DNA of 64,000 nucleotides. Origin: a virus (Duplodnaviria; Heunggongvirae; Uroviricota; Caudoviricetes). Shown one piece after another: positions 1,442-33,706 of this stretch (the stretch's first letter is position 1; each line of letters starts with the position of its first letter). The stretch is taken from the IMG/VR virus record IMGVR_UViG_3300011442_000002, positions 11,825 through 75,824 of that record. One strand, given 5' to 3'. A program made the position numbers and the translations under genes. The notes below the pieces were generated by a model. It was not told where the DNA came from and searched no databases. It was given only the letters and a program-made list of their open reading frames with translations.

Positions 1442-1452
1442 ATCCTCACTTT

Positions 1453-8377: not shown

Positions 8378-8486
8378 TCTAAAAGGCACAAAACGGACAT
8401 AGCCTCCTAAATCCGGATTTTCCTGGACTTACCACCTCTTACCGTACATGTCCGATAATTCGGGAAAATCGGACATAGGAGACAAA

Positions 8487-8696
8487 ATGGAAAAATTCGG
8501 GCGTATCGTCGCATATTACGACAATTCGGTCGGAGTGCCGCAAATCGGACTTTTCGTCGGATATGAGGCATATGGCACAAATTGGACATTCTACCCGAAT
8601 CAGTGCATAGCTGACGGAATGGACAAAAACGGCATAAGGTACCTAGAGGGCGATTTGGGATTTATCGGAGGAATTCCGGCAATCCTGGCAAACTAG
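8487..8696 (+). CDS. early small protein
   Basis: Same start-associated motif (ATGTCCGATAATTCGGGAAAATCGGACATAGGAGACAAAATG). 69 aa. Confidence 0.5.
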   Translation: MEKFGRIVAYYDNSVGVPQIGLFVGYEAYGTNWTFYPNQCIADGMDKNGIRYLEGDLGFIGGIPAILAN

Positions 8697-8786
8697 GACA
8701 AAACGGACATGTACGGCAAAAGGTGGTAAGTCAGGCTATCCGGGTATAAGCGCATATGTCCGACAAAACGGACATAAGGAGACAAA

Positions 8787-9059
8787 ATGCACATTTACGA
8801 CCTTAAGTGCGAAGAGACCAAAACGGACATCTCGGGCATAACAGTCAAAAGTGGGCAAAAGGTGGTAATCGTACGATTGCTGACAATTTCGTACACAGTG
8901 GACGTTAAGGACCTTCTGGACGATTGCGACGTAACGGAGATTTCGCTCAAACAGCTCATAACGGGCGAAGAGCGCGAAAACGACATTACGGTCAAAATGG
9001 AATATTGGGACGAAGCGGAAATTGGGGACGATCTAGTCATTTCGGCCGAAGTACTCTAA
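8787..9059 (+). CDS. early small acidic protein
   Basis: Preceded by ATGTCCGACAAAACGGACATAAGGAGACAAAATG. 90 aa. Confidence 0.55.
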   Translation: MHIYDLKCEETKTDISGITVKSGQKVVIVRLLTISYTVDVKDLLDDCDVTEISLKQLITGEERENDITVKMEYWDEAEIGDDLVISAEVL

Positions 9060-9129
9060 ACCACCCAAATCGGACATATGCGCCTATATCCGGATAGCTC
9101 CCGACGGGAGATATGTCCGTTTTGCCCGG

Positions 9130-9206
9130 TTTGTCGTTTTGTAATTACAAAGGTGTAATTTGTGCCTTGTGCCCGAATTGCACCATTGTAATTACAAAAC
9201 GACAAA
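9130..9206. repeat. 77-bp near-perfect palindrome (21-bp arms TTTGTCGTTTTGTAATTACAA, plus inner GGTGTAAT/ATTGCACC)
   Basis: The arms at 9130-9150 and 9186-9206 are exact reverse complements. The palindrome is flanked by CGGACAT motifs on both sides. Confidence 0.8.
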
Positions 9207-9436
9207 TCGGACATTACGGACATATACGACAAGTCGGAAAAAACGGATAAATCGGGCATTTCCGCCCATATGGTGGCGTATGCGTATGCAGTCCTAAATA
9301 ATTGGACATTTCCGTGCCGATCGGTGACTTTCGGACATTTTGGACAAAAACCACTATATGGGGGGAAAAAATGATTATCCGGATCTAACAGGCTATGTCT
9401 GGCCAAAAGGGACAAATCGGACAAGAGAGGCCAAAA

Positions 9437-9679
9437 ATGGACATTTGGGCTGAACTCTGGCCAATTCCCCACGTAAACGGCAAAACGCACAAATCGGTCG
9501 TAAGGTCGGTTTCCGCTCAAATTAGTGTCTTTGCGACAATCGAGGACATTTACCACAGAGTGGTCAAATCGGGCATTGCGGACGATGACGACGTTTTGGC
9601 GACTACTAGGGCAATTCGGACAGTTCGGGACAATATCCGTAAAACGGTCGAAGGCGGACGAAAGGAACTAACGGCATGA
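9437..9679 (+). CDS. early small protein
   Basis: ATG after a variant motif (ATGTCTGGCCAAAAGGGACAAATCGGACAAGAGAGGCCAAAAATG). 80 aa. Confidence 0.45.
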   Translation: MDIWAELWPIPHVNGKTHKSVVRSVSAQISVFATIEDIYHRVVKSGIADDDDVLATTRAIRTVRDNIRKTVEGGRKELTA

Positions 9680-9859
9680 AACAGACATTCAGGAAAATCC
9701 TGACAAACGGCGCAATCCTGGTGATTAGCTTCTTTATCGGGATATACCTGGGCACAAGGCACTAATGAGCTAAACCAGACATAGCCTGCTAAATCCGGAT
9801 AATCAGGATATACCAGCTCTAAACGCATATGTCCGGTAAAACGGACAAAGGAGACAAAA

Positions 9860-10156
9860 GTGTACGTACAGGATGAAAAGCAACGTAACGTCGGAAATCT
9901 GGACATTCCGGACGGATGGGCCGGAACGTACGATACCTCGCGAATGTGGACAATTATCCACGTAATGCCACAAATCGGGGCATTGGTGACATACCAGGAC
10001 CAAGCGTACCAAATCATCCGAACCGAGACACATCAGGAGGAAGACGTAAATCCGCGCATTACGACCTTTTGCGTCATTGTTCGCATTGACGACGAAGGGG
10101 ACCAATTGGACATAGAGTCCATAATGGTCAAAGCGGACGAACTGACTCTTATCTAG
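9860..10156 (+). CDS. early small protein
   Basis: GTG start after ATGTCCGGTAAAACGGACAAAGGAGACAAAAGTG. 98 aa. Confidence 0.45.
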   Translation: MYVQDEKQRNVGNLDIPDGWAGTYDTSRMWTIIHVMPQIGALVTYQDQAYQIIRTETHQEEDVNPRITTFCVIVRIDDEGDQLDIESIMVKADELTLI

Positions 10157-10254
10157 CAAAAAGGGTAAAACGGACATATGCGTCTAAAGCTGGTATATCA
10201 GGCTATACCCGTTCTAACTCTGCATGTCCGGACAAAACTGGACAAGGAGTACAA

Positions 10255-10518
10255 ATGTACGTAAACGTGGGTGCAAGGGACGTAAGCAACAATAAGGACA
10301 TTCCCACCAAATCGGACCTTAAGGGACGAATGGTGAATTACCCCCAAACCGTCGAATTGTACGTAACTGACGCATTTGGGCCAAATGCAGGCAAAGTGGT
10401 CATTGGCGACAATCTGGAGATTGGTGTCAAATACACCGTAACCGGACCAAACCCGTACACAAGCCGCAAATGGTATGCAACGGTCGAAAAGACTGTTAAG
10501 GGTATCAAAGTAAGCTAA
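10255..10518 (+). CDS. early small protein
   Basis: Preceded by ATGTCCGGACAAAACTGGACAAGGAGTACAAATG. 87 aa. Confidence 0.5.
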   Translation: MYVNVGARDVSNNKDIPTKSDLKGRMVNYPQTVELYVTDAFGPNAGKVVIGDNLEIGVKYTVTGPNPYTSRKWYATVEKTVKGIKVS

Positions 10519-10597
10519 CCCACACAAATCGGACATGCAGGGCTAAAACGGGTATATCCGGATTTAAGGTGACATGTCTCCACAAAAGGAGACAAAA

Positions 10598-10846
10598 ATG
10601 GGCATAAGTGTAGGAACCATCTTCAAGTGGTTGGATTCGGACAATCCAGACGATTCGGCTGAATCCTGCCTAGATGGGCAATGTGTGGGCAAAGTAACCG
10701 AAATCATAGAAAACCCGGACAATACGGACAAACCGTCTGTATCGGTCAAATGGTGGGAAATGTGTAAACTTCACCACGAAATCGATCCAAACGGGACAGG
10801 TCCGTACGATCTGAGTTATATCTGGCAAATCGGACAACTTTACTAA
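10598..10846 (+). CDS. early small protein
   Basis: ATG after ATGTCTCCACAAAAGGAGACAAAAATG. 82 aa. Confidence 0.45.
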   Translation: MGISVGTIFKWLDSDNPDDSAESCLDGQCVGKVTEIIENPDNTDKPSVSVKWWEMCKLHHEIDPNGTGPYDLSYIWQIGQLY

Positions 10847-11130
10847 AACACATCAAATGGGGACATGTCACCCTATATCCGGATATATTCGACTGTCAGG
10901 AACCCGACAGTACGAAATGTCCGGTTAGCACCATAAGTCGGTTTTGTGTGTGCTATACTGGAAGAGTGGCCCAAATCGGGCAAGAAAGCATCAAATCAGA
11001 CATTTTGGGGCATATGCATATGCAGTCCTCAAAAATTGGACAAACTGCAACCAGTCGGATATTGATAACTAAATACGGACATGTCTGGATATATGGGGGC
11101 GTGGCCTGATTTCTACACTTTGGAGACGAT

Positions 11131-11418
11131 ATGTGGGAATATGGCTACACTGATCCTTTTTCAGCCGAAAACGACACCATTGAAGTCTTTTGGGGCGAAG
11201 CATCCTCATTTGTGACGGCTTTGGGCGAATTGTGCGAGAATGTCGAGAAAATGCTCAATGATGCGGAACCGTACCAAATTTCCCATTATGAGCAGGTTCT
11301 CGCGGAAATTCGGACAATTCTCTCAGATCCAGCATATGCGGAAGATCCGGACCAATGGGAAGATATGGAGTTTACGGACGATATCGGAGAAATCGTATAT
11401 TACCTGATCGAACTGTAA
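11131..11418 (+). CDS. early small acidic protein
   Basis: 95 aa, with GGAGAC SD. Lies downstream of a TGCTATACT promoter-like module. Confidence 0.5.
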   Translation: MWEYGYTDPFSAENDTIEVFWGEASSFVTALGELCENVEKMLNDAEPYQISHYEQVLAEIRTILSDPAYAEDPDQWEDMEFTDDIGEIVYYLIEL

Positions 11419-11500
11419 AAATCGGACAGATCAGGCCATACCCCTTTATATCCAGATATGTCTAGCTTTAGACTGCCATGTCCTTAGAAATGAGGACAAA

Positions 11501-11770
11501 ATGGACTTAACGCCTAGTTCGTTCGAAATCAGGGAATACATGGAAAAACAGCCTGGTTTCGGAGAAATCGACTCAAACCTCCAACATGCTATCATTTCGG
11601 ACATTCGGCACAGAATGGCTGCAAGTGTAGAATATTGGCGCACATGGGGCGAATTCGTGCTAAACTACGTAAATTGGGTCAATGAGTACATTACCGCATT
11701 TTCCGTCACACCTGCGGGCATGTGGGAACAATGGGGCGTAATGCTCAGAGACCTCTATTTAGGTAGATAA
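11501..11770 (+). CDS. early small protein
   Basis: 89 aa. Preceded by ATGTCC...GGACAAAATG. Confidence 0.5.
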   Translation: MDLTPSSFEIREYMEKQPGFGEIDSNLQHAIISDIRHRMAASVEYWRTWGEFVLNYVNWVNEYITAFSVTPAGMWEQWGVMLRDLYLGR

Positions 11771-12056
11771 CCACAACAAACGGACATGGCAGGCTAAAAC
11801 TGGACATATCACCACAATAGCCACTGTCAGATACCTGACATGTAGAAATGTCCAATTGGCACTATAAATGCCGATCGGGTATGCTATACTTAGTGTAGGC
11901 GGGCGGAACTGCCAGCAAACCCCACAGGGCAGGACAAACCCGCAAAAATCGGACATTCTCACCTAAATATGGCTTTATTGCACCTTCAGGTAGAAAAAGT
12001 GCAGGATGGGACAAACCATCCCATCCTGTGCTTTCCCTACCTGAAAGGGGCCTAAG

Positions 12057-12650
12057 ATGGCAAACGAGAAGACTCCTATCACAAAGGTACAAAAAGGACG
12101 AAGGTGGGCAACCGCTACTTTGGTGCTTACCGGACTTTTCTCAATTTGGTTTAATGTCCGTTCTGGTAAGATTGCGGCAGAACCGATCCTTTTCTCCGCT
12201 ATGCCAGTTGTGGTACTGTTTCTCACGATTCACCTGATTAGTTACCTTAATCCCCGTAAGGGCATGCATAAGGTACTTGTCTACTTTGGATTGGGTATGG
12301 TGTCAATTGTCGCATTTGGGATGTCTGGCTTCCATTTGTACACGGAAGCGATCAAAAACGGACAAATCTGGATTATTGCGATAACCTACCCATTCATCGT
12401 AGATGTGCCAAGTGTGATTTCTGCGGTAATTTTGGTCGAAAAGGTGCCAGTCGCGCGAGCGGTGACACAACCGGCAAACCCGGCGAAAAAGACAGTTCCG
12501 GCAAAAAAGGCTAGTCCTACTAAGGCTACCGCAACCCCAACAAAACGGACATCTAGCCCGAAAGCGACAATTCCGGTAAAACCCGAAGTAACGTTCAGAA
12601 CGCCTGATATCCTGACAGATCCGTTGGAAAGGGAGTTTCTTAGCGCTTAG
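12057..12650 (+). CDS. integral membrane protein with C-terminal Lys/Pro/Thr-rich tail
   Basis: 197 aa with about 4 predicted TM helices, then PAKKTVPAKKASPTKATATPTKR. A roughly 170-nt structured leader lies upstream. Confidence 0.55.
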   Translation: MANEKTPITKVQKGRRWATATLVLTGLFSIWFNVRSGKIAAEPILFSAMPVVVLFLTIHLISYLNPRKGMHKVLVYFGLGMVSIVAFGMSGFHLYTEAIKNGQIWIIAITYPFIVDVPSVISAVILVEKVPVARAVTQPANPAKKTVPAKKASPTKATATPTKRTSSPKATIPVKPEVTFRTPDILTDPLEREFLSA

Positions 12651-13422
12651 GTGCATTTAGTGCGATTCTGGCATTTTGGACATTCCACTCAGAGTGTCAG
12701 AATCGTGCTATGTCCACCTAAACCAACTAAATCCAACTTAAAAGGGACAGATCATGCCAAAGAGTACGAAGTTGACGATTAGGCAAATTCGGGCATTTAA
12801 TAGCTTTTTGGACAAACTCCTCAAAGTTACCGAATCCGCTGACTTAGCACATCTGTACGAAAGTGCCAAGATCAGCGGTGCCCAAATCGGACAAACGGTA
12901 CTTAAGGGATAGGACGGACAATGCGGATCAAACCGTATGCAATTATCTCAATAATCGTAATAGCCGTATATGCATCCATAGCTGTCCTTTCCAGGATCTA
13001 GCTCGCATTACGGTCAGATCGCCCATTTCCGCACATTAGGCGCGATCCGTCGGATATGGTCCTAAAAAGCCCATATCCGCACGGTCCGGGGCCTAAACCG
13101 GACATTTACACCTCAAATACCACAGAAAGGTACAAAAATGTTCAACACTGACACTTCGGTTGATGAGCACCTAGAAGCGGCGTATGAGGCGCAATCGGAC
13201 AGTTCGTACGAACCGTACGGATACGGGTCAGACTACGCGGACCCGGACGATTACGACGATTACGACGAAGAGGACGATTCAGACGAAGAGGACGAAGACG
13301 ACATCTAGTACCAACCCCACCATTTAGGCAGATTTGGTGTGAGATAGGTCTAGTCCACCTATCTCATGCCATGTCCACCTAAATCGGCACAAAACTACCA
13401 AAACCGGAGAGGATCGGACAAA

Positions 13423-13611
13423 GTGACACGAAAACACTATATCCTTCTAGCTCGGACAATTAGGGCTCAGATGGAGAAATACGACTATCCGGACGATACG
13501 CGCGAACTGGACGCAATCCGGGCATTAGTCAACGAACTGTGCATAACGCTCAAAGCGGACAATCAAGACTTTGACCGCGAAAAGTTCCAAAAAGCTACAA
13601 TTCACTTCTAA
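13423..13611 (+). CDS. early small protein
   Basis: GTG start after GGAGAGGATCGGACAAAGTG, in frame with listed ORF 13366. Confidence 0.4.
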   Translation: MTRKHYILLARTIRAQMEKYDYPDDTRELDAIRALVNELCITLKADNQDFDREKFQKATIHF

Positions 13612-13839
13612 CAACCACATATTCCCCAAAAGGGACGATCATGGTCGTATTGGTACATATGTACCAATACGTGCCATGGGCGCCTCTAATTTCCAAAATG
13701 CCTATACCTAGGCAGAGACACCCAAAAGGCACCAAACCCGCTCAGCGTGGCCCACAACGGGCGAACGGCACCAACCACGCTGAGCGGACCAATGCCCACC
13801 AACCAAGATCAACAGACCACCTAGCAGAAAACGGACAAA

Positions 13840-14076
13840 ATGGACATTTCCCCACACAATCCGCCAATGCCAGTTACCACCAAAAAAGCCACAAAGAGGA
13901 AGAAGTACCCGAAAGGCGGGTCAATGCGGGCACCTAACGCAATCGCCGCGATTTACTCGGATAACACATATGCCGTGATCGCGGACGAAGCTACCGAAAG
14001 GCGGCTAAGTGCGTACGGACCGCCTACAGACACCCGAAAGGCTGGATACAACTTCATTTGGGGCGAAGTGAACTAA
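13840..14076 (+). CDS. early small basic protein
   Basis: 78 aa. Preceded by AAACGGACAAAATG. Confidence 0.45.
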   Translation: MDISPHNPPMPVTTKKATKRKKYPKGGSMRAPNAIAAIYSDNTYAVIADEATERRLSAYGPPTDTRKAGYNFIWGEVN

Positions 14077-14782
14077 TCGGACATGTCCGGACATGAGGAC
14101 CCAATCTCCACCAAATCCCTCATGTCCGGACAATCCGACCTATATTTAACCATACCACCTGTATTCCTCAAGAATTGGGGCAATCCGCCTCCATTCGGTC
14201 ATTCGCTTACCTATCGGACCCAAATATGTATACCGGGGATACCTCTTTCTATCACTCGCTGAGTGGGGGTCGTGGTCACGTGGAATCCCACCAAATCGGA
14301 CATACCGCCAATAGCAGCGTGTTTGCCACGAGTCACCACACAGTCAGCATCTTCACTACTCTACTACTCCTATTTTTTCCTTGTTTCATTTAAGCAATGA
14401 CTACATACTTAATACAAACGTCTGTTCGAATCAAAACGGACAAAACAATATATCTACGGAAGTTAATGGTATACCTTATCTCTCGCACACACCGGCAATT
14501 TGGACATTTTCATGCCACTGTCTTGTTCTAGAACAGACGTTCCAATGCCTTATCTAGGTAGAGCGCTTCAGGACTCGTAAAAATTTGGATATTACGACTC
14601 AACATCACAAATGTCCGAATTTTTTGCTATAGTGTGGACCTTAATCGCTAAACGTAGATAAGGGATTGGCCCGGTAGAGATCAACTTTGTCTCAATCGTG
14701 ACCAGTGCTAACATAGGTAGCTAGCCGCGCCAATGACATAAAACGGTCAACACGTAGCAACTACCCACATACGGAGCGTAAC

Positions 14783-16772: not shown

Positions 16773-16820
16773 TCGAAATGCAATAAGTCAGTGCCTAACT
16801 GACTAAAATCAACTAAGGTG

Positions 16821-16853
16821 GGTAGGGTACTCAGTTTGACTGAGTACCCTACC
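16821..16853 (+). terminator. 14-bp perfect hairpin (GGTAGGGTACTCAG/CTGAGTACCCTACC)
   Basis: Lies directly after the 16772 stop. There is no U-tract. Confidence 0.45.
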
Positions 16854-16975
16854 GCTTGCGTTAAGGACGTGACAAAGTTCACACTATACCTAAAATCTAC
16901 GATTTTAGGGGACTTAACGCCCAAATGTACAAAAAGGCATTAAAAGCACATTAAACAGTAATAACCTAACAAAAA

Positions 16976-17017
16976 GGACAAAGGACAAAGGACAAAGGAC
17001 AAAGGACAAAGGACAAA
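16976..17017 (+). repeat. (GGACAAA)x6 tandem repeat abutting a start codon
   Basis: Six perfect 7-bp units end 2 nt before the ATG at 17020. Each unit contains an AAGGA SD-like core. Confidence 0.8.
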
Positions 17018-17019
17018 AA

Positions 17020-17232: not shown

Positions 17233-17258
17233 AAACAGGCATTAACCCCTAAAAAGGG

Positions 17259-17311
17259 CACTCAGTACTATAAGACTCAAAAGGTCCGATTAGTACTGAG
17301 TGTCCTTTTTT
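17259..17311 (+). terminator. Rho-independent terminator
   Basis: 11-bp stem CACTCAGTACT/AGTACTGAGTG followed by TCCTTTTTT. Confidence 0.65.
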
Positions 17312-17637: not shown

Positions 17638-17879
17638 TGCAAGAAATTCCAAGTCTGGCACAAATACTTTACATGGTGGCCCTACTAGGATCTCTAGGAA
17701 CTCTGATTGCTGTTGGGATTCTAGTAGGACACTTTCGCAAGCACTTAGATTGACTGAAAATAATTAGTGGTTTTGCTCGGTACTCGACGTGCTAATGCAA
17801 CTCATTGCTAACGATAGGTCGAGTACCGTGTTATTCAACTAACTATATTAACCCAAGCAATACCACAGTTAGGAGAAGA

Positions 17880-18170
17880 TGGTTGTATGTTCCCGATGAT
17901 TGGCGCACGGCTTGTTATGACCACACAATTACCGCACACAAAGTAAGCTTTACTAAGAAACTCTTGTGCTGCACCTGTGGGATTACTGGCTGGAATCCAC
18001 ATCAACTATGGGCAGGCCATGTTAATGCAGAGAACGAGGCTAGAGCATTCCTAATGACGATAGAAACCCGGAAAGCTGACCATATGGCTAAACGTGTTGC
18101 TGAGGAAAAAGCGAGAGTAAAAGCTAGAATGGCAGGAACTACTACAGGTAGAAGCCGTTATTATGATTAA
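17880..18170 (+). CDS. hypothetical Cys-rich protein
   Basis: In-frame TTG start after AGGAGAAGA, preferred to the listed 17805 ATG, which has no RBS. Confidence 0.35.
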   Translation, partial: WLYVPDDWRTACYDHTITAHKVSFTKKLLCCTCGITGWNPHQLWAGHVNAENEARAFLMTIETRKADHMAKRVAEEKARVKARMAGTTTGRSRYYD

Positions 18171-18257
18171 ATGCTTGGTTGCGTTGCATTGTCCAGGAAA
18201 TAGAAACATCCTGGGCAGTGTTGCACAACTAAACAAATGGACAAACAGAAAGGCAAT

Positions 18258-18635
18258 AAAATGGAACTTTCTGAGTACAAACTTCCTGTTGGCAATGAGT
18301 CGACACACGAATACTACAAATACTCATATTACTATGAGGCACTGGAAATTTTGAATCCAGATGCAGGACCATGCATTACGTGTGATAAGCCGATGGTTCG
18401 GCTTAGAGCAAAGCAGTTTATCAATCACAATGAAGTGAAGTACACGCAGATTTCGGATATTATGTACGCGCACGCGGACGGCAGCGAGCCGCATGCAGGA
18501 TTTTATAATCATCCTAAGGCAAAGTGTCCAGATTGCTCGCAGTATGGCACGCTCACGACACAGCAGCTACCTTATGGCGATTTGACTACTTGTAGTCATT
18601 GCCATCAGCAGAGTTATTTCCCGATTGGCGATTGA
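18258..18635 (+). CDS. zinc-finger protein (multiple CxxC)
   Basis: CITCD...CPDC...CSHCH. Start chosen after the AAAGG SD. Confidence 0.45.
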   Translation, partial: KMELSEYKLPVGNESTHEYYKYSYYYEALEILNPDAGPCITCDKPMVRLRAKQFINHNEVKYTQISDIMYAHADGSEPHAGFYNHPKAKCPDCSQYGTLTTQQLPYGDLTTCSHCHQQSYFPIGD

Positions 18636-18729
18636 TTTAGTACAAAGCGGTCGTTACAGGTTCGATTCCTGTGGCGACCACGCACGTTAGTTGTAAATGG
18701 ACAATAGAACAACGAAGGGAATTGATAAA

Positions 18730-18975
18730 ATGGGTAAGAACGCTACTTCAACAACTGAAATCGTGAATGACACAACTAGGCTTTTGGCTGAGATTCGCGC
18801 GCAGATTAGTGTTATGCGAGAACGAATCGGGACACCTGGCGATCGAGTCAATTACGTTGCTTCCGGGCAACTTGTAACGGACACGACTAAGCTGATGGAC
18901 CGAATTAGCACGCTAGATGCTGGTCTGACGGTAGGCGAGGATTTGCCACGGGACTGGATGCTAATTCACGACTAA
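18730..18975 (+). CDS. hypothetical protein
   Basis: Start after the AAGGGA SD. Confidence 0.4.
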   Translation: MGKNATSTTEIVNDTTRLLAEIRAQISVMRERIGTPGDRVNYVASGQLVTDTTKLMDRISTLDAGLTVGEDLPRDWMLIHD

Positions 18976-19052
18976 GTGAATAGTTGGTTGCGTTGCATTG
19001 TGCTCATGGCAACATGAGCGCAGTGTTGCACAACCAAACAGAAAGGTAAGAA

Positions 19053-19295
19053 ATGTACTTTAAGTTCAAGTATAAGACTAATGGCGGACACACGCATTAC
19101 CGTCTGTTCGCTGGAAATAATGAGTTTGCCCTAGGACTTGCTGGTCCTAGTCAAACTCTAAGAAATGAAGAATGGGAAGCTTTTAAGTACATTTTAGAGG
19201 CTGGCACCATTCCAGATTTAGATACAGCTCAAGAAATAAACTTGGAACAGAATAACACTGTAGAGTTTGTCGAACAGGATGGCTGGCTATGGTAG
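19053..19295 (+). CDS. hypothetical protein
   Basis: 80 aa ORF. Confidence 0.45.
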   Translation: MYFKFKYKTNGGHTHYRLFAGNNEFALGLAGPSQTLRNEEWEAFKYILEAGTIPDLDTAQEINLEQNNTVEFVEQDGWLW

Positions 19296-19555
19296 ATCCT
19301 ACGGTACCAAATGGCATTACCCGTGAGGAATTTTTCATTCTAGTAACTCGCGCGGTTAATTCAGGACTGAATCCTGATAGGTTTTGGGCGCGCGTGCTAG
19401 AACTGCAAGATCGAGTTAGGCTCTACCAAGCCTGGTACATTGAATCAAAAGAGGTAGTGGCTCAAATTCTTAAAGATGAGCCGTTACCAGGCGAACGTAG
19501 TAGTGAATGGCCTTATCCTAAGGTAAGGCCGATTAAGGATAATCCACAAGCTTAG
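19289..19555 (+). CDS. hypothetical protein
   Basis: 88 aa ORF overlapping the previous stop. Confidence 0.45.
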   Translation: MVDPTVPNGITREEFFILVTRAVNSGLNPDRFWARVLELQDRVRLYQAWYIESKEVVAQILKDEPLPGERSSEWPYPKVRPIKDNPQA

Positions 19556-19852
19556 TGTAACAACTTGCCCTGTGGGCACTCTGTTAGCATTCAGATATGT
19601 AAATGTGTCTGTTTAGCTCGCGCAGTGCCCACAGGTAGCAGGTAGAGCGCTAGACCGGCCACGCCGCGCGCTCAGCGCCACGCTCCCGCGCTCGAATTTA
19701 ATTTATGTCTGGACGGTAAGGGTCAAGCCGTGGTAAAATAATTTCAGACGATGAGTGCAAGATTCACAGCTAGATTGCTGATTTAGGTATAATTCGGACA
19801 TACCGAACAAATTATACCTAACTGAACAATTTAGACAATAAGGACAAGAAAA

Positions 19853-20179
19853 ATGGCAGACATTGTCGTTCAGTATAGCATTGAATATTTTGCTTTCAAC
19901 CGGAAACCTAAATCCAACAAAGGTAAGACGGACAAACAGCACGATTGCCTATTCAATGAGCCTATTACGCTTTTTGGTGAAGGTCAATATGCATTAAACC
20001 GCGCTCAGCAATGGGTGCATGATGCAAATTTGGTTCGCTACGAAAAGCGGAATGCTGATGGCGTAGGTTTGGAACTAGATAACTTCTATGGTGAATTTAT
20101 TGACATAGAAGTTAGAAGCCAAGTTATTGTGCGGTTCCCATACCAAGTAGTGGAAGAAAAAGAAAAGGACGAAAGCTAA
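19853..20179 (+). CDS. hypothetical protein
   Basis: 108 aa. A TATAAT-containing hairpin lies upstream. Confidence 0.45.
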   Translation: MADIVVQYSIEYFAFNRKPKSNKGKTDKQHDCLFNEPITLFGEGQYALNRAQQWVHDANLVRYEKRNADGVGLELDNFYGEFIDIEVRSQVIVRFPYQVVEEKEKDES

Positions 20180-20321
20180 TTGTTCAACATGGTGCAGAAC
20201 GTGCCCTAAGTGTGCACACCAACCATTTGGAAACGCATAGAACGCCGTATGCGGGTGTGCACACCTAAGGTACGTTCTGCGCCGTGTTGTCCAATTACAA
20301 CAAGTCGAAAGACAGGACAAA

Positions 20322-20774
20322 ATGGAACTAGAAAAAGAGATTTACATGACCGACGATGACCTAACGGTTGTTGTCGGTACATACGTTAGACGTAACATGC
20401 AAAACACAGACTGTGATGTTTGTGGAGGTTTGATAAATGATCACGCATGGATTGCGCTTGGTGATCCGGACGGGCGCGTAGTAAAGTGCTCAAACCGCAA
20501 TGAAAAGCCAAGTGCAAGCCTAAGCTTTACTGAATATGTTGCATATAACGAGTATGGTGGCGTTGTGATGACATTTCCGCGGTTCCAGTTGGAATCGTGG
20601 TTGCTGGATTTCAACAGTAATGGCCGCCTAGCTCGTGGTTGTTGGGAGTTTATGAAAATGGACGAGGCTGGCGTTAAGGTTATTTGCGCTAGACTTTCTC
20701 CTGGTAAAACTCTCGATGGTAAAGATAACAATTGGAAAAGTTGGCAGTACACCTTTGTACCAAAACTATACTAA
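20322..20774 (+). CDS. hypothetical protein
   Basis: 150 aa. Preceded by GGACAAAATG. Confidence 0.45.
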   Translation: MELEKEIYMTDDDLTVVVGTYVRRNMQNTDCDVCGGLINDHAWIALGDPDGRVVKCSNRNEKPSASLSFTEYVAYNEYGGVVMTFPRFQLESWLLDFNSNGRLARGCWEFMKMDEAGVKVICARLSPGKTLDGKDNNWKSWQYTFVPKLY

Positions 20775-20793
20775 CAAAGGATAAAAACTGAAA

Positions 20794-21261
20794 ATGAAGA
20801 CTGCGATTATCGGCACAGTTATTCTACTGTTGCTAACGGCTGGCTCGTGTGACAAGACTGAGGGTAAGGCTAGTGAAATTTACCCTGGTTACACGTTTCC
20901 GGCTGATGTTCCACCAGGCTGTGTTGAGCCAGTAAAGCAAGGATTAGATTGGGTAACACTACATGCGCAATCTACCGATCCTCAGCTATCTGTTACTGTT
21001 TCGACGGAATCCGCAGAACAAAGTGTAGTGGACACAAAAGGACGTTATTTCCCGACTGGTGAGGTAGTAGAATCACCATTCTGTTCGTCCGTTCACTATC
21101 GGCCTGGTAAGCCGGTGTCTGTTATTATTAGGGCATCGTCGATTAACCGCAACCCGGCAGAAGTTGTTACTTGCTTCATTAAGAACAGGTTTGGTACTGT
21201 TCTTAATCAGTCAGTAGTATCTGGAAGTTCGCAAGCGGTTTGTAGCGTTACAGTTTCATAG
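20794..21261 (+). CDS. putative lipoprotein
   Basis: Signal peptide with lipobox (LLTAGSC). Confidence 0.5.
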   Translation: MKTAIIGTVILLLLTAGSCDKTEGKASEIYPGYTFPADVPPGCVEPVKQGLDWVTLHAQSTDPQLSVTVSTESAEQSVVDTKGRYFPTGEVVESPFCSSVHYRPGKPVSVIIRASSINRNPAEVVTCFIKNRFGTVLNQSVVSGSSQAVCSVTVS

Positions 21262-21335
21262 ACTGAATGTTCTGCATGGTACTCAGCAAAACTGAGTACC
21301 GTGTTCTTCATTCAGAAAATAGAATTGGAGAATCA

Positions 21336-21605
21336 ATGACTGAAACTACCGAAGTAAAAATGATGATGTTGTTTTGCAAGGGTTGTAGTGATATCTTTGC
21401 AATTCCATCTCGACGTGGTCGACCGCCCGAGTTCTGCAAGAATTGTGCTAAAAAGGACGAACTAGGCGAGCTACCAATAACAGAAACAGAGATTGAGAAG
21501 AAAGCTGATTTGCGTGCGGCTGCTGAGGCTAGGGTAGATCGGCTAGAAATGATGCTAAGAAGTACAGGTAACCACATTTCGCAACACCGCGACAAGTGGG
21601 AATAG
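21336..21605 (+). CDS. zinc-ribbon protein
   Basis: CKGC...CKNC. Start after the GGAGAA SD. Confidence 0.4.
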   Translation: MTETTEVKMMMLFCKGCSDIFAIPSRRGRPPEFCKNCAKKDELGELPITETEIEKKADLRAAAEARVDRLEMMLRSTGNHISQHRDKWE

Positions 21606-21619
21606 AAAGAGGTTAGAAA

Positions 21620-21853
21620 ATGGAAGACGTCTTTGTTGCGATTTACCCACTAAGCATGGGTAACCCGTCGAACAAGTTTCGTGTTGCCCGTAAGGTTAAC
21701 TGGCAGAAGTTCCTGGATAAGGAAACTGATGATTACCAGTTTACCGAGTTTGACAATTTGGCTGGCGCACTTGCTAGTCGAGACAAGCTAAACCATGATG
21801 CTGCTAAGAAAGCTAAGGTTGTTGTAGAAGACGAAGCGACCGAAGCGGCATGA
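21620..21853 (+). CDS. hypothetical protein
   Basis: 77 aa. Confidence 0.4.
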   Translation: MEDVFVAIYPLSMGNPSNKFRVARKVNWQKFLDKETDDYQFTEFDNLAGALASRDKLNHDAAKKAKVVVEDEATEAA

Positions 21854-22105
21854 GGTACTTAGTAGAGATTGAAGTAGAAGACAAGGAAGAACTTCCGCCA
21901 GATGCTCAAGATATTGATTTGAAGGATTTTCTGACGGATCACTTGTATGATCTCACTAAGCATCACGACGCCACTAAGTGGACTATCAAAGTTAAAAATG
22001 TGTCTCCTAAGTACATGACATATTAGTGACGTTACATTGTGCCTGTGGGCTTGCCTACAGACACAGTGTTGCATCACTAAAATGGAATCCGAGAAAGGAC
22101 AGAAA

Positions 22106-22835
22106 ATTGTCAGAGGAAAACAGCACAAATAAATGGCGTGAGATTGTTGAAAAACTTATGGCGAAAGCCGAAGATAAGGCAACAACTCAAGCCGAACGTG
22201 ATGCGATTGTAGATAAAGTAACACACTTAATGGCCAAGTTTGGCATTGAGCAAGATATGCTTAGAGCACAACGAAATGAAACTCCTAAGGTTGATATGCG
22301 CAGACTTATTGTGCACGCACCGTTTAGCCTTAAGAAAATGCTTATGCTCAACGCAATTGCCAAAGCTTTTGGTTGTTATGTGGTTAGGTCCGAAGAAAAA
22401 GCTAATGTCTTCGGTGTTCAGGAAGATATTGAGCGAGTGTTTATGTTATACTTCTCGCTCGTTATCCAGCTTATTACTGCAATGGAAGGTGCACAGGCAG
22501 AAAAGCCAGCATATGTGCACACTAGAACGTTTAACACTTCCTTTGTAGAAGGATATGTTGCTACTGTAATACAAAGAGTTAACGATGCTGCCGCTCGTGC
22601 TAGAGAAGATGTTAAAGCATCAGCGGCTGGTAGTGGTATGGAGCTAGTGCTGATTAATAAGGCACAGCTAGTTAAGCACGCAGTACATGATATATTTCCT
22701 AGGCTATCAAACATTAGAACTTCAACTAGTGTTAATAGTCGAGAAGGATACAACTCTGGTAGAGCCGCTGGTATGCGCGCCGATCTAGGTGGCACCAGAA
22801 TCGGACAAACGGCACGCCGAGAGATTGGAAACTAA
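22106..22835 (+). CDS. DUF2786-like protein
   Basis: N-terminal KLMAKAEDKATTQAERDAI..LMAKFGIE helical motif typical of DUF2786. TTG start after AAAGGA. Confidence 0.4.
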
Positions 22836-22836
22836 G

Positions 22837-23025
22837 ATGGCTGATCTAAGATCAATTCCAAAAGACGAACTACGGATAATGTTTGTAAAAGCTGCCCGTA
22901 GGGTATTTCTTCGTGATGTTGAGGCTAGAAAGCGAGCTAGAATGCATGAAATTGCTTTTCAGACTGGACTTTCTGTCGAAGGGGTATCAGGAATTTGGGA
23001 AATCGAAGATATGACTAGCGCTTAG
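22837..23025 (+). CDS. hypothetical protein
   Basis: 62 aa. Confidence 0.35.
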   Translation: MADLRSIPKDELRIMFVKAARRVFLRDVEARKRARMHEIAFQTGLSVEGVSGIWEIEDMTSA

Positions 23026-23098
23026 TGGCATTGCATGATACTCAGCTTGTCTGAGTATTGTGTTGTACCACTAAGAAAACTAACAAAAAGGACTAGAC

Positions 23099-23437
23099 AT
23101 GAAGGTACTAATAGTAAGGCCAATTTCAGATGAGGTAACTGCTGAAATGGTTGATGTTGATGTTAATCTAGAATGGCTGCAAAAGACCGTTGGTGGTAAC
23201 ATAGAACTCGTTTCCAGTGGATCTTTTGCTAGCTGGAATGCTTATTGTAATGAAGAAGGAAAACTGCTTAGGTTGCCGGTCAATGAAACAGCAACTCTTT
23301 TTGCTGAAGAACTTGGTTGGTTGGGTATTGGTGATGTACTAGTGGGTAATGTGGTTTTTCTCGGTCCTGCTGATAACTTCGGAGAAGATACCGCAGTGCC
23401 CGAGTGGCTGTTAGAGCAGTTTTTCCGTAATCGTTAG
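23099..23437 (+). CDS. hypothetical protein
   Basis: 112 aa. Confidence 0.45.
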   Translation: MKVLIVRPISDEVTAEMVDVDVNLEWLQKTVGGNIELVSSGSFASWNAYCNEEGKLLRLPVNETATLFAEELGWLGIGDVLVGNVVFLGPADNFGEDTAVPEWLLEQFFRNR

Positions 23438-23502
23438 TAGCATTGCATGGTACTCAGAGTAATCTGAGTGCTGTGTTGTACTACTAAGGAGAATGGACAA
23501 AA

Positions 23503-23673
23503 ATGAAACCAAAAATTAGCATTAGTCCAGAAGCACGAAAAGCTATTGGTGATGCTCAAAGCCGTTACCAAGAAATGTGTGAAAACCTTTATTCGGAAAT
23601 GGTTTATGAGCTATCTATGCGCTTAGGTCTGGAATACGATCTTGTAGAAAGAGTTCTAGACGAGGAGTTTTAA
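23503..23673 (+). CDS. hypothetical protein (56 aa)
   Basis: Unlisted ORF after AGGAGAATGGACAAAAATG. Confidence 0.35.
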   Translation: MKPKISISPEARKAIGDAQSRYQEMCENLYSEMVYELSMRLGLEYDLVERVLDEEF

Positions 23674-23776
23674 TGAAGTGTATAATTTGTAAGGCAAAGG
23701 AAAAGGATGGCGTAATCACGCACACTAAGACGTGTCCTGATTATGGACATAAAGATCACGAAACCAAGGTTCAATC

Positions 23777-23968
23777 ATGAAAAAGGACCCACAGGATGTC
23801 GGCTTAGACATTTTTCTTGATGACTGTGATCATCCTGAAGGTTATACTGATGAGCCGGTTGATTGTGACCATGTTCATCCAGCGTATTTCACACCTTGTG
23901 TAAAGCCATATCTTCATACTGATACGTTACATGAAGATAGTAATGCAAATACATGGTGGGAAGCTTAA
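23777..23968 (+). CDS. hypothetical acidic protein
   Basis: 63 aa. Confidence 0.4.
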   Translation: MKKDPQDVGLDIFLDDCDHPEGYTDEPVDCDHVHPAYFTPCVKPYLHTDTLHEDSNANTWWEA

Positions 23969-24026
23969 CTCGTGTTGATCATACTAGGCTTGACCTAGTA
24001 TGGTCATCCCAAGTTAAAGGAGAAAA

Positions 24027-24332
24027 ATGGTAAAACTAACAAGTAACAGGCCAAAACTATCTCGACCACCTCGTATGGTTGCTAATAACTCTACAACGAG
24101 AATGTCTGCACCAATGGATTGTGCTCATTGTAGTAGATTAATGAATAACTTTGCTGGTGGTTACAGTCGTGGACCAACGGGTCAAGTTTTGTGTCATCCT
24201 AATGCCACAGGCCGACCAGATTGCTACAAACTAGTAACTGTTTACAATCACGAAGTTCCTTGTACTGGCACAGTATGTTATGAAGATAACCATGATTTTA
24301 TGGAATACGTAGAAGGATACAAAAATGGGTAG
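24027..24332 (+). CDS. hypothetical protein
   Basis: 101 aa. Confidence 0.45.
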   Translation: MVKLTSNRPKLSRPPRMVANNSTTRMSAPMDCAHCSRLMNNFAGGYSRGPTGQVLCHPNATGRPDCYKLVTVYNHEVPCTGTVCYEDNHDFMEYVEGYKNG

Positions 24333-24771
24333 TTCTCCTAGTGGAATTCTGGTCTATGGGTATGACTTGGGTGGACCAGACTTTTGGAAGTTACAAGGTA
24401 CTACCGAAACTGGAGATTACTACAACTTTCCAGGTTTTGAAGGTCGACGTTTTAACGCAAATGATGAATATTTTGAGGACAGGCTGCTAGCTTTGGTTGG
24501 TATTCCTGACCTTGAGAATAGCACGTTTAAGCAACGTAATGAAGCAAAAGCGAAACTAGAAGTTGGTATTGAGAGATATGGCTCTTACGAGTACCCAAAT
24601 TACCTGCTAGGGGTTAAGCCTTTGCATGTTGTTTGGGATTACGGAGCTAAGCCGATCAATATTGATCTCGACCACGCTGCTAATATGAAGCTAGATGCCG
24701 CACTTGAGGTACTTAATATTACACCAATACAACTGGTACCTCGCTGGATTCTGGCTTGCTTTTACGGTTAA
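24325..24771 (+). CDS. hypothetical protein
   Basis: 148 aa. Confidence 0.45.
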   Translation: MGSSPSGILVYGYDLGGPDFWKLQGTTETGDYYNFPGFEGRRFNANDEYFEDRLLALVGIPDLENSTFKQRNEAKAKLEVGIERYGSYEYPNYLLGVKPLHVVWDYGAKPINIDLDHAANMKLDAALEVLNITPIQLVPRWILACFYG

Positions 24772-24837
24772 TTGCATTGCATGGTACTCAGCTCAGTCTG
24801 AGTACTGTGTTGTACAATTAACAGAAATGGAGTATTA

Positions 24838-25152
24838 ATGTCTCATAGTATTGAAACCACCAATCTGGTTATTCACCACAATTCTGACTATTCCGGATGT
24901 ATCTCTTTTAGCATTCCTGAAATAACTATGTACAATGCTGAAACTGCTGGACCAAATTTGACTGGTCCACGAATTGCGTATCATCCTAATGCAATTGGTG
25001 GCGATGATGCAATTGATGGCGAGTATGTGGTTTATATTCCGTTTCAGGATCTAAGAACTCTCTTCGCACACTATGTGCGCGATAGGGTTCAAGATCGTCT
25101 TGATGAAATAACAGATGATGATTTGCTAGATATTACAACTGCGCTACTTTAG
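24838..25152 (+). CDS. hypothetical protein
   Basis: 104 aa. Confidence 0.45.
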   Translation: MSHSIETTNLVIHHNSDYSGCISFSIPEITMYNAETAGPNLTGPRIAYHPNAIGGDDAIDGEYVVYIPFQDLRTLFAHYVRDRVQDRLDEITDDDLLDITTALL

Positions 25153-25218
25153 TTGCATTGCAGCCGACAGGTCTTGCACCTGTGGGTTGTTGTACAACTA
25201 ACAGAAAGGACAAAAAAC

Positions 25219-27225: not shown

Positions 27226-27285
27226 GGGTCGAACGTTGATTGGTTAGCCTATTAAGCCGCTGGTTCCGGGTTCGAATCCTAGCAG
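27226..27285 (+). ncRNA. modular structured RNA element, family copy 4 (with GGGTTCGAATCC T-loop-like segment)
   Basis: GGGTCGAACGTTGATTGGTTAGCC...GGGTTCGAATCCTAG. Confidence 0.3.
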
Positions 27286-27361
27286 AGATTTAGTTATCTC
27301 TGTAGCTCAATTGGTAGAGCAGCGAAAACCCCGATCAACATACACACATCCGAACTATCCC

Positions 27362-31651: not shown

Positions 31652-31740
31652 GGTCGAAGTTAATTGTTTATCTCAGATAGTTTAAAGGGTAAAACAATCC
31701 TCATTGAGGGTTAATGTCGGTTCGAATCCGACTCTGAAAT
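31652..31740 (+). ncRNA. modular structured RNA element, family copy 7 + T-arm hairpin (GTCGGTTCGAATCCGAC); candidate Y-RNA-like ncRNA next to the Ro60 gene
   Basis: GGGTCGAAGTTAATTGTTTATCTCAG with stem ATTGTTT/AAACAAT, then CCTCATTGAGGG, then a T-arm. Confidence 0.4.
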
Positions 31741-31776
31741 TCGTAACGATTACAACACATATCCAATAGTCCTTTG

Positions 31777-32107: not shown

Positions 32108-33706
32108 ATGGCTAACTCAGCATTCTCCCGTGCGTTAGGCACTCCAGCAATTCAGACCGAAAAGGCTCGCCCGGATCAGGTCGAGAACAACGCTGGTGGA
32201 TTTGTTTTTGAGGTGTCTGACCAGGCACGGCTTGAGCGCTTTTTAATTCTCGGCACTGATGGTGGAACGTACTATACGTCTGAGAAGAAGCTCACTAAGG
32301 AAAATATCGCGTTTTTACAGGACCTTATTGAGCGTAACGAAGACCTAGTAATCGACGTTGTGCGTGCAGTATCCATGGGTGGACGTGCTTACCGTAACTC
32401 TGCGGCAATCTTCACTGTTGCTGCTTTGTTTACCTACGGTAAGGAAAAGTCTTCTCAGCTAGTTGAGGATGTTTGCCGCACTGCGACGCACCTGTTTGAG
32501 TTTGCTGAGTACGTAGAACTACTTGGTGGTTGGGGACGTTCTAAGCGTCGCGCCGTTGCCGAGTGGTACACTAACAAGACACCAGAAGCATTAGCTTATC
32601 AGGTAATTAAGTATCGTCAGCGCAATGGTTGGTCTCACCGCGACCTTCTACGTTTGTCCCACCCTGTGGGCCTTAACAAGCGGGTAGGCAATTTCATTAC
32701 TGGTGAGGACAAGCGTCCTGCTGCTAGTACTACTGACGAAGAAGATTTGGGCATTATCCGTGCTTTCAAGTTTGCACAGGAAGCTCAGTCATTTTCTGAA
32801 TTGAAGAATATGGCGCTAACCGAGCGTAGTCTACCTTGGGAAGCTGTACCTACGGAGTTCCACAAGAATGTCGAACTTTGGAAGACTCTTTTCTACAATG
32901 GTGCGCTCAAAGGTCAAGCCCTTCTGCGTAATATTACTCGCTTGGCTCGTTTGGGCGCTTTTGACGATCTCGTGTTTGCTCGCGATTTCGCTGATGGACT
33001 TCTTAACGAGGAAATGATTAAGCGTACCAAGCTACACCCGATTCAGTACTTGCTTGCACTATCGGTACACCAGATAGGTCAGGTTGATCGTAAGCTTCAC
33101 GTTAGAACTAAGGATTGGCGCGAGTCACACATCATTGTAGATGCACTTAATGAGGGATTCTACAAGGCATTTAGCTATGTAGAGCCAGCAAATAAGCGCA
33201 CTATGATCGGTCTCGATGTTTCAGGATCTATGTCTAGTAGTGCTCTTGGATTAGAACTTAGCTGTGCGCAAATTGGTGCAGCTATGTCTATGTCAATTGC
33301 TCGTACTGAGCCTTACTATGCAATTATGGGCTTCAAGAACAAGTTAACAGACCTTGGTATCACTGCTAGCATGGATCTGAACAGTGTGTTGCAGCGTACT
33401 GAAAACCAAACTTTTGGTAGCACTGATTGTTCGCTACCAATTCTTTACGCACAGATGAACAACATCGCAATTGATACCTTTGTCATTATGACCGACAATG
33501 AAACTTGGTTTGGTAGTGTGCATCCATTCATAGCGCTCCGTGATTATCGACAGAGAACTGGTATTGATGCAAAGCTAGTGGTAGCAGGACTAACGACAAC
33601 TGAATTCACTATTGCAGATCCTCGCGATCGTGGTATGCTAGATGTAGTTGGTGCTGATGCTAACCTTCCAAAGCTTGTTTCCGAATTCAGTGCAGGCAGG
33701 ATTTAA
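32108..33706 (+). CDS. rsr: Ro60 / TROVE-domain protein with C-terminal vWA (MIDAS DxSGS) domain (Rsr-like)
   Basis: LERFLILGTDGGTYY is a TROVE signature. C-terminal GLDVSGSMSS. The size (532 aa) is typical for Ro60 orthologs. Confidence 0.65.
   Translation: MANSAFSRALGTPAIQTEKARPDQVENNAGGFVFEVSDQARLERFLILGTDGGTYYTSEKKLTKENIAFLQDLIERNEDLVIDVVRAVSMGGRAYRNSAAIFTVAALFTYGKEKSSQLVEDVCRTATHLFEFAEYVELLGGWGRSKRRAVAEWYTNKTPEALAYQVIKYRQRNGWSHRDLLRLSHPVGLNKRVGNFITGEDKRPAASTTDEEDLGIIRAFKFAQEAQSFSELKNMALTERSLPWEAVPTEFHKNVELWKTLFYNGALKGQALLRNITRLARLGAFDDLVFARDFADGLLNEEMIKRTKLHPIQYLLALSVHQIGQVDRKLHVRTKDWRESHIIVDALNEGFYKAFSYVEPANKRTMIGLDVSGSMSSSALGLELSCAQIGAAMSMSIARTEPYYAIMGFKNKLTDLGITASMDLNSVLQRTENQTFGSTDCSLPILYAQMNNIAIDTFVIMTDNETWFGSVHPFIALRDYRQRTGIDAKLVVAGLTTTEFTIADPRDRGMLDVVGADANLPKLVSEFSAGRI

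Follow-up and report, generated by a model that had tools for sequence, protein, structure and literature searches.

The analysis of a 64,000-nt stretch of a tailed phage genome (hereafter the window; positions 11,825 to 75,824 of IMG/VR record IMGVR_UViG_3300011442_000002) reveals a family of imperfect stem-loops that recurs between small co-oriented genes, and comparison among related phages establishes, at the level of sequence, that these are copies of a real cis-acting RNA element whose structure is specific to RNA and to the coding strand. Judged from its form and placement, the element most likely directs mRNA processing or stability. The family itself is undescribed, with no entry in Rfam and no match in cultured phages, and it belongs to a general kind that is already known, the repeated intercistronic hairpins of phage operons. 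A sequence-only reading of the window had placed seven long stem-loops upstream of start codons; all seven are present, with coordinates off by 1-3 nt (Table 1). A covariance model (CM), R1, was built from these seven copies and, run with its filters off, matched nothing further in the 64 kb beyond eight copies and three diverged ones, the eighth and the diverged copies being absent from the earlier reading.

Table 1. Members of the stem-loop family in the window, with model scores, fold statistics and gene context (CM, covariance model score; z, fold stability against dinucleotide shuffles; ORF, open reading frame; SD, Shine-Dalgarno sequence)
Feature	Position	Strand	Evidence	Structure and context
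Copy 1	18175..18232	+	CM 73.7 bits; z -6.1	10-nt loop; 4 nt past the stop of ORF 17883-18170; SD AGAAAGG and ATG ~18261 downstream
Copy 2	18984..19037	+	CM 85.4 bits; z -7.0	ATG 19053, 15 nt past the stem
Copy 3	22023..22080	+		Lower stem holds stop TAG of ORF 21850-22026; upstream of DUF2786/DUF7168 gene, position kept in seven related phages
Copy 4	23022..23074	+		TAG 23023-23025 in lower stem; loop CUUGU; then ATG 23099
Copy 5	23434..23487	+		TAG 23435-23437 in lower stem; then SD AAGGAG, ATG 23503
Copy 6	24768..24821	+		TAA 24769-24771 in lower stem; then ATG 24838
Copy 7	25149..25201	+		TAG 25150-25152 in lower stem; loop CUUGC; SD AGAAAGGA, ATG 25219
Eighth copy (not in the sequence-only reading)	12647..12721	+	CM 25.8 bits, filters off; fold	Lower stem TTAGGTG/CACCTAA, holding stop TAG of ORF 12057-12650
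Degenerate copy	17764..17842	+	CM 27.6 bits; fold	Family-like 3' half GAGTACCGTGTTATTCAACTAA
Diverged copy	21263..21315	+	CM 35.7 bits (model match 21258-21331); fold	Family upper stem GCATGGTACTCAG/CTGAGTACCGTGT
Subfamily-B hairpin	23965..24017	+	CM 22.8 bits	TTGATCAT...ATGGTCA; loop CUUGA; stop TAA 23966-23968 within lower stem

The seven copies share a common fold, in which a 7-bp lower stem (consensus UUAGUUG/CAACUAA) is followed by a C.A 1x1 mismatch, two base pairs and a U.U 1x1 mismatch; above these stands an upper stem, about 13 bp long, which an apical loop of 4-10 nt closes. The two pairs enclosed by the mismatches are A-U or G-C and then an almost invariant U-G. Predicted folding energies lie between -22.8 and -35.5 kcal/mol. 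Compared with dinucleotide-shuffled sequences the copies have z-scores of -4.8 to -7.0, and 0 of 200 shuffles reached the same stability. The outer-stem variants quoted in the earlier reading (TAGTTG/CAACTA, TAGTAG/CTACTA, TAATTG/CAATTA, TAGTGG/CCACTA and TTGGTTG/CAACCAA) are correct, and its description of an inner stem rich in G-U pairs holds as to the existence of such a segment; the pattern is more specific than was claimed, running in the order C.A, A-U or G-C, U-G, U.U, G-U, C-G, A-U, U-G. In the eighth copy the upper stem is longer (22 bp) and the segment above the lower stem reads C.C mismatch, AU/UG, U.U mismatch. The degenerate copy has an enlarged internal loop and a 27-nt apical region, and the diverged copy retains the family upper stem, but its internal loop is 4x4 and its lower stem is not that of the family.

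Compensatory change in the outer stem, which had been proposed from the seven copies by eye, was borne out when they were aligned with MAFFT: 98.7% of the alignment cells are paired and 13 of 22 base pairs change on both sides, a result reached by 0 of 500 shuffles, while slid registers pair at 25-51%. These observations were further strengthened by a larger alignment, A3, which holds the 54 matches with E <= 1e-4, including the seven canonical copies of the window and its diverged copy (21258-21331), drawn from 11 loci (10 distinct phage contigs and the close relative L142) and fitted to the model. In A3, 95.6% of 1188 cells are paired and compensatory changes occur in 20 of 22 pairs (244 cells), with 0 of 500 shuffles as good and slid registers at 23-51%. 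Because A3 is fitted to the model, the orthologous copies lying 5' of the DUF2786 gene in seven phages were also aligned independently of it with MAFFT; here 96.6% of cells are paired and 14 of 21 pairs show compensatory change. Proteins of these phages are approximately 45-55% identical, whereas the elements are 75-80% identical in nucleotides and form the best-conserved nucleotide stretches between these genomes; the elements are therefore old, held in place and under structural selection.

The proposal that the structure is specific to RNA and to the plus strand is likewise upheld by pair composition, since the paired columns contain 219 G.U cells against 15 A.C. Mean folding free energy in the sense orientation is -25.5 kcal/mol vs -17.1 kcal/mol in antisense (a difference of 8.4), and in 52 of 54 copies it is the sense strand that folds more stably. 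For the seven window copies, antisense RNAs are weaker by 3-12 kcal/mol and open into large internal loops, and R1 scores the sense strand at 69-85 bits vs 18-28 bits for antisense, about 50 bits lower. A double-stranded DNA palindrome would show no such G.U/A.C bias, and the element accordingly acts as RNA of the sense strand.

Superimposed on this covarying helix is a set of conserved irregularities. The U16.U56 mismatch is invariant (54 of 54), though one substitution would close it, and it is accompanied by U15-G57 (47 of 54), G17-U55 (41), A19-U53 (51), U20-G52 (49) and C13.A59 (34). Read 5' to 3', the sequence UUGYA surrounds the U.U mismatch on the 5' arm in 39 of the 54 copies, on the 3' arm in 32 and on both arms in 27, a pseudo-twofold motif of the kind that would fit a twofold-symmetric reader. 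A CUNGU pentaloop (CUAGU, CUUGU or CUCGU) caps 20 of the 54 copies, and several others carry a close relative of it; copies 1, 2, 5 and 6 of the window are without the pentaloop. The span of the element is 53 nt in 29 of 54 copies, and its stacked layers (7 + 1 + 2 + 1 + 13) come to about 24. The pattern of conservation suggests that selection maintains the irregularities, and because mismatches, wobbles, loop and span are all conserved, recognition by a protein, beyond mere stability, is indicated.

The placement of the element relative to genes is equally regular. Among the 49 copies with a recognisable upstream ORF, the stop codon of that ORF falls at columns 7-9, within the lower stem, in 34, a feature that the sequence-only reading had not noted, and stop usage at these 49 copies (TAG 35, TAA 11, TGA 3) can be set against a window background of TAG 29, TAA 39 and TGA 22. 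From the end of the stem to the next start codon the median distance is 15 nt (15-29 nt for the window copies), with the SD in between. The first 12 nt 3' of the stem are rich in A (46%) and G (27%), with 18% T and little C (8%), and in virtually every copy this spacer, with its SD, is predicted to stay single-stranded. Neighbouring genes that have no element between them overlap or abut, so the region can be described as a succession of blocks in which one to three genes are translationally coupled, a stop-hairpin-SD unit standing before each block. The stem-embedded stop codon, the invariant U.U within a symmetric wobble core and the recurrent CUNGU loop are the distinctive traits of the family. 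The elements lie between co-oriented ORFs, which are presumed to be co-transcribed because promoter and terminator motifs are scarce there. Two copies in relatives have no upstream ORF and stand directly 3' of promoter-like sequences (at L140:7984, TTGACA-17-TACACT ends 6 nt 5' of the stem; at L139:4778 the sequence is TGcTATAGT), and because these would start transcription at the stem base, the element can presumably also serve as a 5' leader.

The element is shared by a group of uncultured relatives. An exact 18-mer scan of IMG/VR returned five loci, of which one (L004) is genuine, and the others (L001-L003 and L005) were rejected as the same coding-sequence coincidence. The element is also carried by the metagenome contigs L127 (= L131) and L129, and seven further syntenic phage loci, L136-L143, were reached via homologues of a neighbouring cysteine-rich (Cys-rich) 101-aa protein. 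In the eleven relative loci searched, R1 gave 57 matches, all on the gene strand (L141 duplicates part of L140); counted over ten related metagenomic phage contigs, the model adds 47 copies to those of the window. A subfamily B, defined by TTGATCATG...TGTGGTCA with a 3x3 internal loop, occurs at 23965-24017 in the window and at 4357-4462 and 5079-5134 in L129 (reverse-complemented). At the site preceding the Cys-rich gene, subfamily B is present in the window and in L129 but a canonical copy in L131, and elements have thus apparently been replaced at a fixed position.

Wider searches delimit the family. With a looser gapped pattern, 80 of at least 120 IMG/VR stretches (L006-L085) yielded two weak R1 matches (26.1 bits, E 0.026), which were judged to be chance. 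A loose-pattern scan of genome contigs gave chance matches in unrelated taxa and no R1 match in 80 of at least 120 loci, a pattern that leaves the presence of the family in bacterial genomes and prophages undecided. In IMG/VR, no relatives came up with either the DUF2786 protein or an alignment of the Cys-rich protein as query. Neither the region (megablast) nor one element (blastn) had a match among 50,697 cultured phage records. Rfam 15 at gathering score reported only tRNAs over the whole window, and an E-value scan of 17-26 kb reported only chance-level hairpin matches (e.g., MIR5743, 26.6 bits against a cut-off of 111). No family copies were found in the regions searched of Streptomyces phage Comrade, which has the closest Ro60 (54% identity), or of the distant metagenomic relatives L265 and L266, the latter of which encodes Ro60.

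Comparison of close relatives further suggests, from sequence, that the elements mark junctions of gene gain and loss, independently of any function as RNA. The 98% identical L141 and L142 differ by two indels, each of which ends at the 5' edge of an element: the first is a block of promoter, element and two genes, and the second is a gene of 66 aa whose flanking 12-14-nt direct repeat takes in the stop codon together with the opening bases of the element. At nine loci the gene backbone is conserved, and orphan genes within it have elements on both sides.

We propose that the helix is quite possibly the recognition site of a dimeric double-strand-specific ribonuclease, most likely host RNase III. 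This reading is favoured because the helix length, the fixed span, the symmetric core, the intercistronic site and the lack of a terminator tail all fit it. Substrates of E. coli RNase III typically comprise two helical turns, and internal loops or bulges confine cutting to one strand, leaving protective 3' hairpins (PMC1540722). The present elements likewise offer approximately two turns of quasi-continuous double-stranded RNA with irregularities. In the proposed mechanism, a polycistronic mRNA would be organized as a cassette in which a stop codon in the stem base leads into a quasi-continuous helix of about 24 layers, then an unpaired SD spacer and then a start codon. A dimeric enzyme would read the two-turn helix, the upper stem of about 13 bp and the UUGYA/UUGYA core around the U.U mismatch, and cutting or binding at this point would divide the long transcript, leaving one to three genes per unit. 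Such units would end or begin with a protective hairpin while leaving the ribosome-binding site free, and the boundary sequence shared by every unit could provide preferred junctions for the gain and loss of gene blocks. In putting this model forward, we infer polycistronic transcription, the action and identity of the nuclease and the effects on stability and translation.

Two phage systems offer close parallels to this arrangement. The early transcript of T7 is cut at several related RNase III sites (R0.3, R0.5, R1, R1.1, R1.3 and others). These resemble the present family as sequence-related intercistronic hairpins of approximately two turns with non-Watson-Crick positions and no U-tract, and one T7 site lies in a 5' leader, as two copies in relatives may here; cleavage is proven in T7 and putative here, and there is no sequence similarity between the two and no Rfam match. 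Bs-RNase III sites are said to occur in the early mRNA of SP82 and SPO1 (Panganiban and Whiteley 1983), reportedly as near-identical conserved intercistronic hairpins of about 50 nt in the early phage mRNA of a Gram-positive host, with the downstream product of SP82 reportedly retaining a stabilising 5' structure. That host lineage differs from the one expected here, and the likeness is one of description, not of sequences.

Several observations weigh against cleavage by RNase III. Among the scanned ORFs of the window, Pfam found no RNase III, double-stranded-RNA-binding domain (dsRBD), Cas6-like or other recognisable RNA endonuclease domain, and a host enzyme is assumed because no phage RNase III was found among these ORFs (matches to Pfam 'Serglycin' were dismissed as artefacts of the GS linkers joining concatenated ORFs). 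To our knowledge, bacterial RNase III normally needs no conserved sequence or loop, and a protein that binds a specific sequence would account at least equally well for the invariant core and CUNGU loop. The helix is interrupted by symmetric 1x1 mismatches, in contrast to the asymmetric internal loops of the T7 sites, which also have neither an embedded stop codon nor a conserved apical loop. The promoter-adjacent copies (L140:7984 and L139:4778) would be 5'-terminal leaders with no cistrons to separate, and terminating ribosomes could melt the stop-bearing lower stem and so oppose cleavage. The evidence for junctions of gene gain and loss, on which the last step of the mechanism draws, comprises two indels only.

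Other explanations account for parts of the same evidence. A passive insulator or stabiliser, in which an uncut hairpin blocks 3'-to-5' exonucleases for the upstream cistron, or at a 5' end blocks decay that depends on RNase J or RNase E, and keeps the downstream ribosome-binding site unpaired whichever gene precedes it, is rather unlikely, and yet the great stability of the hairpins, the unpaired A/G-rich SD spacer, the two copies that begin at a predicted transcription start and the flanking of interchangeable gene blocks would all follow from it. Stability alone leaves unexplained the U.U mismatch, the wobbles, the C.A mismatch, the 53-nt span and the CUNGU loop, conserved features that lower stability or constrain sequence. 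Known cases of this type include bacterial REP/BIME elements, among other intercistronic stabiliser hairpins; REP/BIME are repeated extragenic hairpins 3' of stop codons in operons that can protect upstream mRNA; the likeness lies in repetition past stop codons inside operons, whereas REP units are shorter, occur in both orientations on the host chromosome and keep no fixed spacing to a start codon. We regard as doubtful an operator for a phage-encoded, probably dimeric RNA-binding protein that reads the UUGYA core, the loop or both, so that translation or decay of the genes after elements would be co-regulated as a post-transcriptional regulon. Invariant sequence inside a covarying helix, pseudo-dyad symmetry, the conserved loop and the fixed spacing to SD and AUG speak for such an operator, as does restriction of the family to a single clade, absent from distant relatives and cultured phages, which suits a clade-specific factor; many small Cys-rich, zinc-ribbon-like proteins are encoded in the region. 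Against it, no candidate RNA-binding protein was identified and Pfam returned nothing relevant, the hairpin stands clear of SD and AUG so that simple occlusion is not obvious, and copies 1, 2, 5 and 6 have no CUNGU loop. A further idea, which we consider speculative and unlikely as it stands, is a clade-specific RNA 'punctuation code' in which a dedicated factor reads the UUGYA/U.U core and the CUNGU loop; this factor could be encoded, so far unrecognised, by one of the many small Cys-rich ORFs of the phage, or could be a phage-redirected host enzyme. With the upstream stop codon forming part of the lower stem, the terminating ribosome would open the site, coupling translation of one gene block to the processing, decay or initiation of the next. 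If true, the hairpins would represent a post-transcriptional regulon of a class new among phages and not a generic RNase III site.

The remaining readings have less to commend them. The ESAS of cluster K phages are 17-bp imperfect inverted repeats with -35/-10 hexamers, which have no RNA pairing support and are currently interpreted as SigA-like promoters that carry an operator-like repeat (PMC3203893, PMC11373665). The SAS/ESAS are like the present family as one-orientation repeats in the non-structural arm of actinophage-type genomes, just 5' of start codons and conserved together with the downstream gene family, but the departures among the present elements are compensatory and covary as RNA, and a search for the 13-bp SAS GGGATAGGAGCCC with up to 2 mismatches gave 0 matches. 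A primary role as a recombination linker or cassette boundary, with RNA structure secondary, is improbable; its model would be the PeSLs of T4-type phages, composite cassettes of early promoter and terminator stem-loop (PMC2839356, PMC4122927). Like PeSLs, the elements are conserved intergenic stem-loop cassettes among small variable genes at indel junctions between close relatives: both L141/L142 indels, a small sample, abut an element, one with its direct repeat, the synteny at the nine loci with bracketed orphan genes agrees, and the elements are the most conserved nucleotide stretches. Unlike PeSLs, they have no promoter consensus within the element (two relatives' copies are promoter-adjacent) and no U-tract, and they show RNA-specific covariation. 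Linkers for homologous recombination need identity, and nothing in that role calls for compensation or for G.U to outnumber A.C 15:1 on one strand; the elements also stay at orthologous sites while their sequence drifts. We give least credence to terminators, attenuators or pause sites, even though stable hairpins do stand right behind stop codons and a terminator-like scan caught 21274-21304. The sequence-only reading had entertained intrinsic terminators, a function now disfavoured by the A-rich, U-tract-free sequence 3' of the stem and by T runs that do not exceed 3 in the 54 copies; a canonical hairpin followed by TTTTTT exists at 17255-17311 in the same genome, and 7-11 terminators in a 13-kb co-oriented block with sporadic promoters would silence the block. 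The two other functions suggested in that reading, RNase III-type processing sites and translational operators, both agree with the anatomy and are plausible candidates. Hardly more credible are sites related to Ro60 and Y RNA, or attC-like recombination sites in single-stranded DNA. Ro60 is present in every related contig whose fetched stretch reached it (the window, L136, L137, L139 and L143), but no Y_RNA or YrlA model matches the elements, the candidate Y-RNA stems of the phage carry the unrelated motif GGGUCGAA, and Ro60-bearing L266 and Comrade are without the family in the regions searched. The attC sites of integrons fold as single-stranded DNA and have RYYYAAC/GTTRRRY cores, extrahelical bases and the IntI integrase; the elements resemble them as imperfect hairpins directly after each promoterless gene block; in both, the base is conserved, as are unpaired positions, and the top varies. 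They differ in having a TTAGTTG/CAACTAA lower stem and 1x1 mismatches only, with neither the attC cores nor extrahelical bases, no Phage_integrase domain occurs among the scanned window ORFs, and the dependence on G.T wobbles points to RNA.

Further candidates were tried and rejected. For translational bypass of the T4 gene 60 type, the codon before the stop recurs past the hairpin in 10 of 42 cases, a frequency judged to be about chance without a shuffled control, and downstream ORFs have their own SD and AUG. Stop-codon readthrough would meet in-frame stops within about 10 codons (e.g., at copy 6), and a sigma-70 promoter inside the element was dismissed on reading the sequence, which holds no hexamer pair with 16-18-nt spacing.

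The finding leaves current understanding standing. Repeated intercistronic hairpins have been described in a handful of model systems, among them T7, SP82 and the T4-type PeSLs, and their roles have been settled only where RNA ends were mapped; the ESAS, the best-known actinophage analogue, proved to be a DNA element, and the comparative evidence at the RNA level is here unusually clean. The clade comprises uncultured, tRNA-rich, Ro60-encoding phages, and the covariance model gives a means of annotating where genes, and perhaps transcript units, begin and end in metagenomic phages of this type. Moreover, the compact stop-hairpin-ribosome-binding-site part is a candidate insulator for synthetic operons in Gram-positive or actinobacterial hosts, and UUGYA/UUGYA around U.U provides a defined motif for seeking the protein that reads it.

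The window comes from a metagenomic contig of 75.8 kb (ENA ERZ27267705 k141_773735) of an uncultured tailed phage, which has no nucleotide match among the 50,697 cultured phage records and whose protein similarities are distant, towards actinophages. Portal, protease and terminase genes occupy the minus strand at 48-4792, 22 tRNA genes are clustered at 26-42 kb, a Ro60/TROVE gene lies at 32108-33706, and the segment at 52-57 kb encodes a fusion of uracil-DNA glycosylase and PolA as well as a DUF3987-domain protein, whose homologues are phage primase/helicases. The hairpin region is a series of co-oriented small genes between a CGGACAT-rich stretch and the tRNA block, and the Cys-rich, zinc-ribbon-like proteins that it encodes are of unassigned function. 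The earlier view that the stem-loops are distinct from the CGGACAT family is confirmed, the CGGACAT motif clustering at 7.2-14.6 kb. Within 7200-14650, TTCGGACAT/ATCGGACAT has 52 matches (<=1 mismatch) vs 13 expected, often as inverted pairs in gaps of about 100 nt between very small genes, an arrangement suggestive of an array of operators or promoters. A lone site occurs in each of the two large gaps flanking the hairpin-rich operon, at 19793 and at 25877.

Other structures were noted in and around the hairpin region. Two hairpins outside the family (16816-16857 and 17255-17311) reuse the apical sequence of copies 4-6 (GGTACTCAG...CTGAGTACC, or ACTCAGTAC), which suggests exchange of hairpin tops within the genome. 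The intergenic gaps at 19565-19645 and 20185-20305 (+) are filled by much larger hairpins, at approximately -50 and -76 kcal/mol, and the former, 5' of a CGGACAT site, may be the actual terminator-promoter boundary of the operon. At 18655-18690 (+), a tRNA-like fragment of T-arm and acceptor (GGTCGTTACAGGTTCGATTCCTGTGGCGACCA), uncalled by ARAGORN and Rfam, sits in the gap 18636-18729, the sole intergenic gap of the region with no family hairpin. A sixfold tandem repeat of AGGACAA at ~16970-17019 (+) abuts the ATG at 17020 and amounts to a run of SD-like GGA motifs.

Observations elsewhere in the window concern the Ro60 and tRNA genes and two further proteins. A sub-threshold Rfam match to YrlA at 27258-27326 (+) (39 bits against a cut-off of 69, E 1e-5, tRNA-like domain) adjoins a tRNA-Arg gene about 5 kb upstream of the Ro60/TROVE gene, and this candidate and two neighbouring stems use the GGGUCGAA motif. 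The motif GGGTCGAA occurs three times, near 26914, 27147 and 27225, so up to three Ro-binding stems may be present. The Ro60 of the window is 54% identical to the Ro60s of Streptomyces phages such as Comrade. A tRNA-Asn at 31670-31742 (+) has the unusual anticodon ATT according to ARAGORN and is scored as a tRNA at 44 bits by Rfam. A gene for a Fic/DOC-domain protein lies within the tRNA-rich region at 41593-42096 (+), and the polymerase encoded at 54964-57258 (+) is of family A, with an N-terminal domain of the uracil-DNA-glycosylase superfamily.

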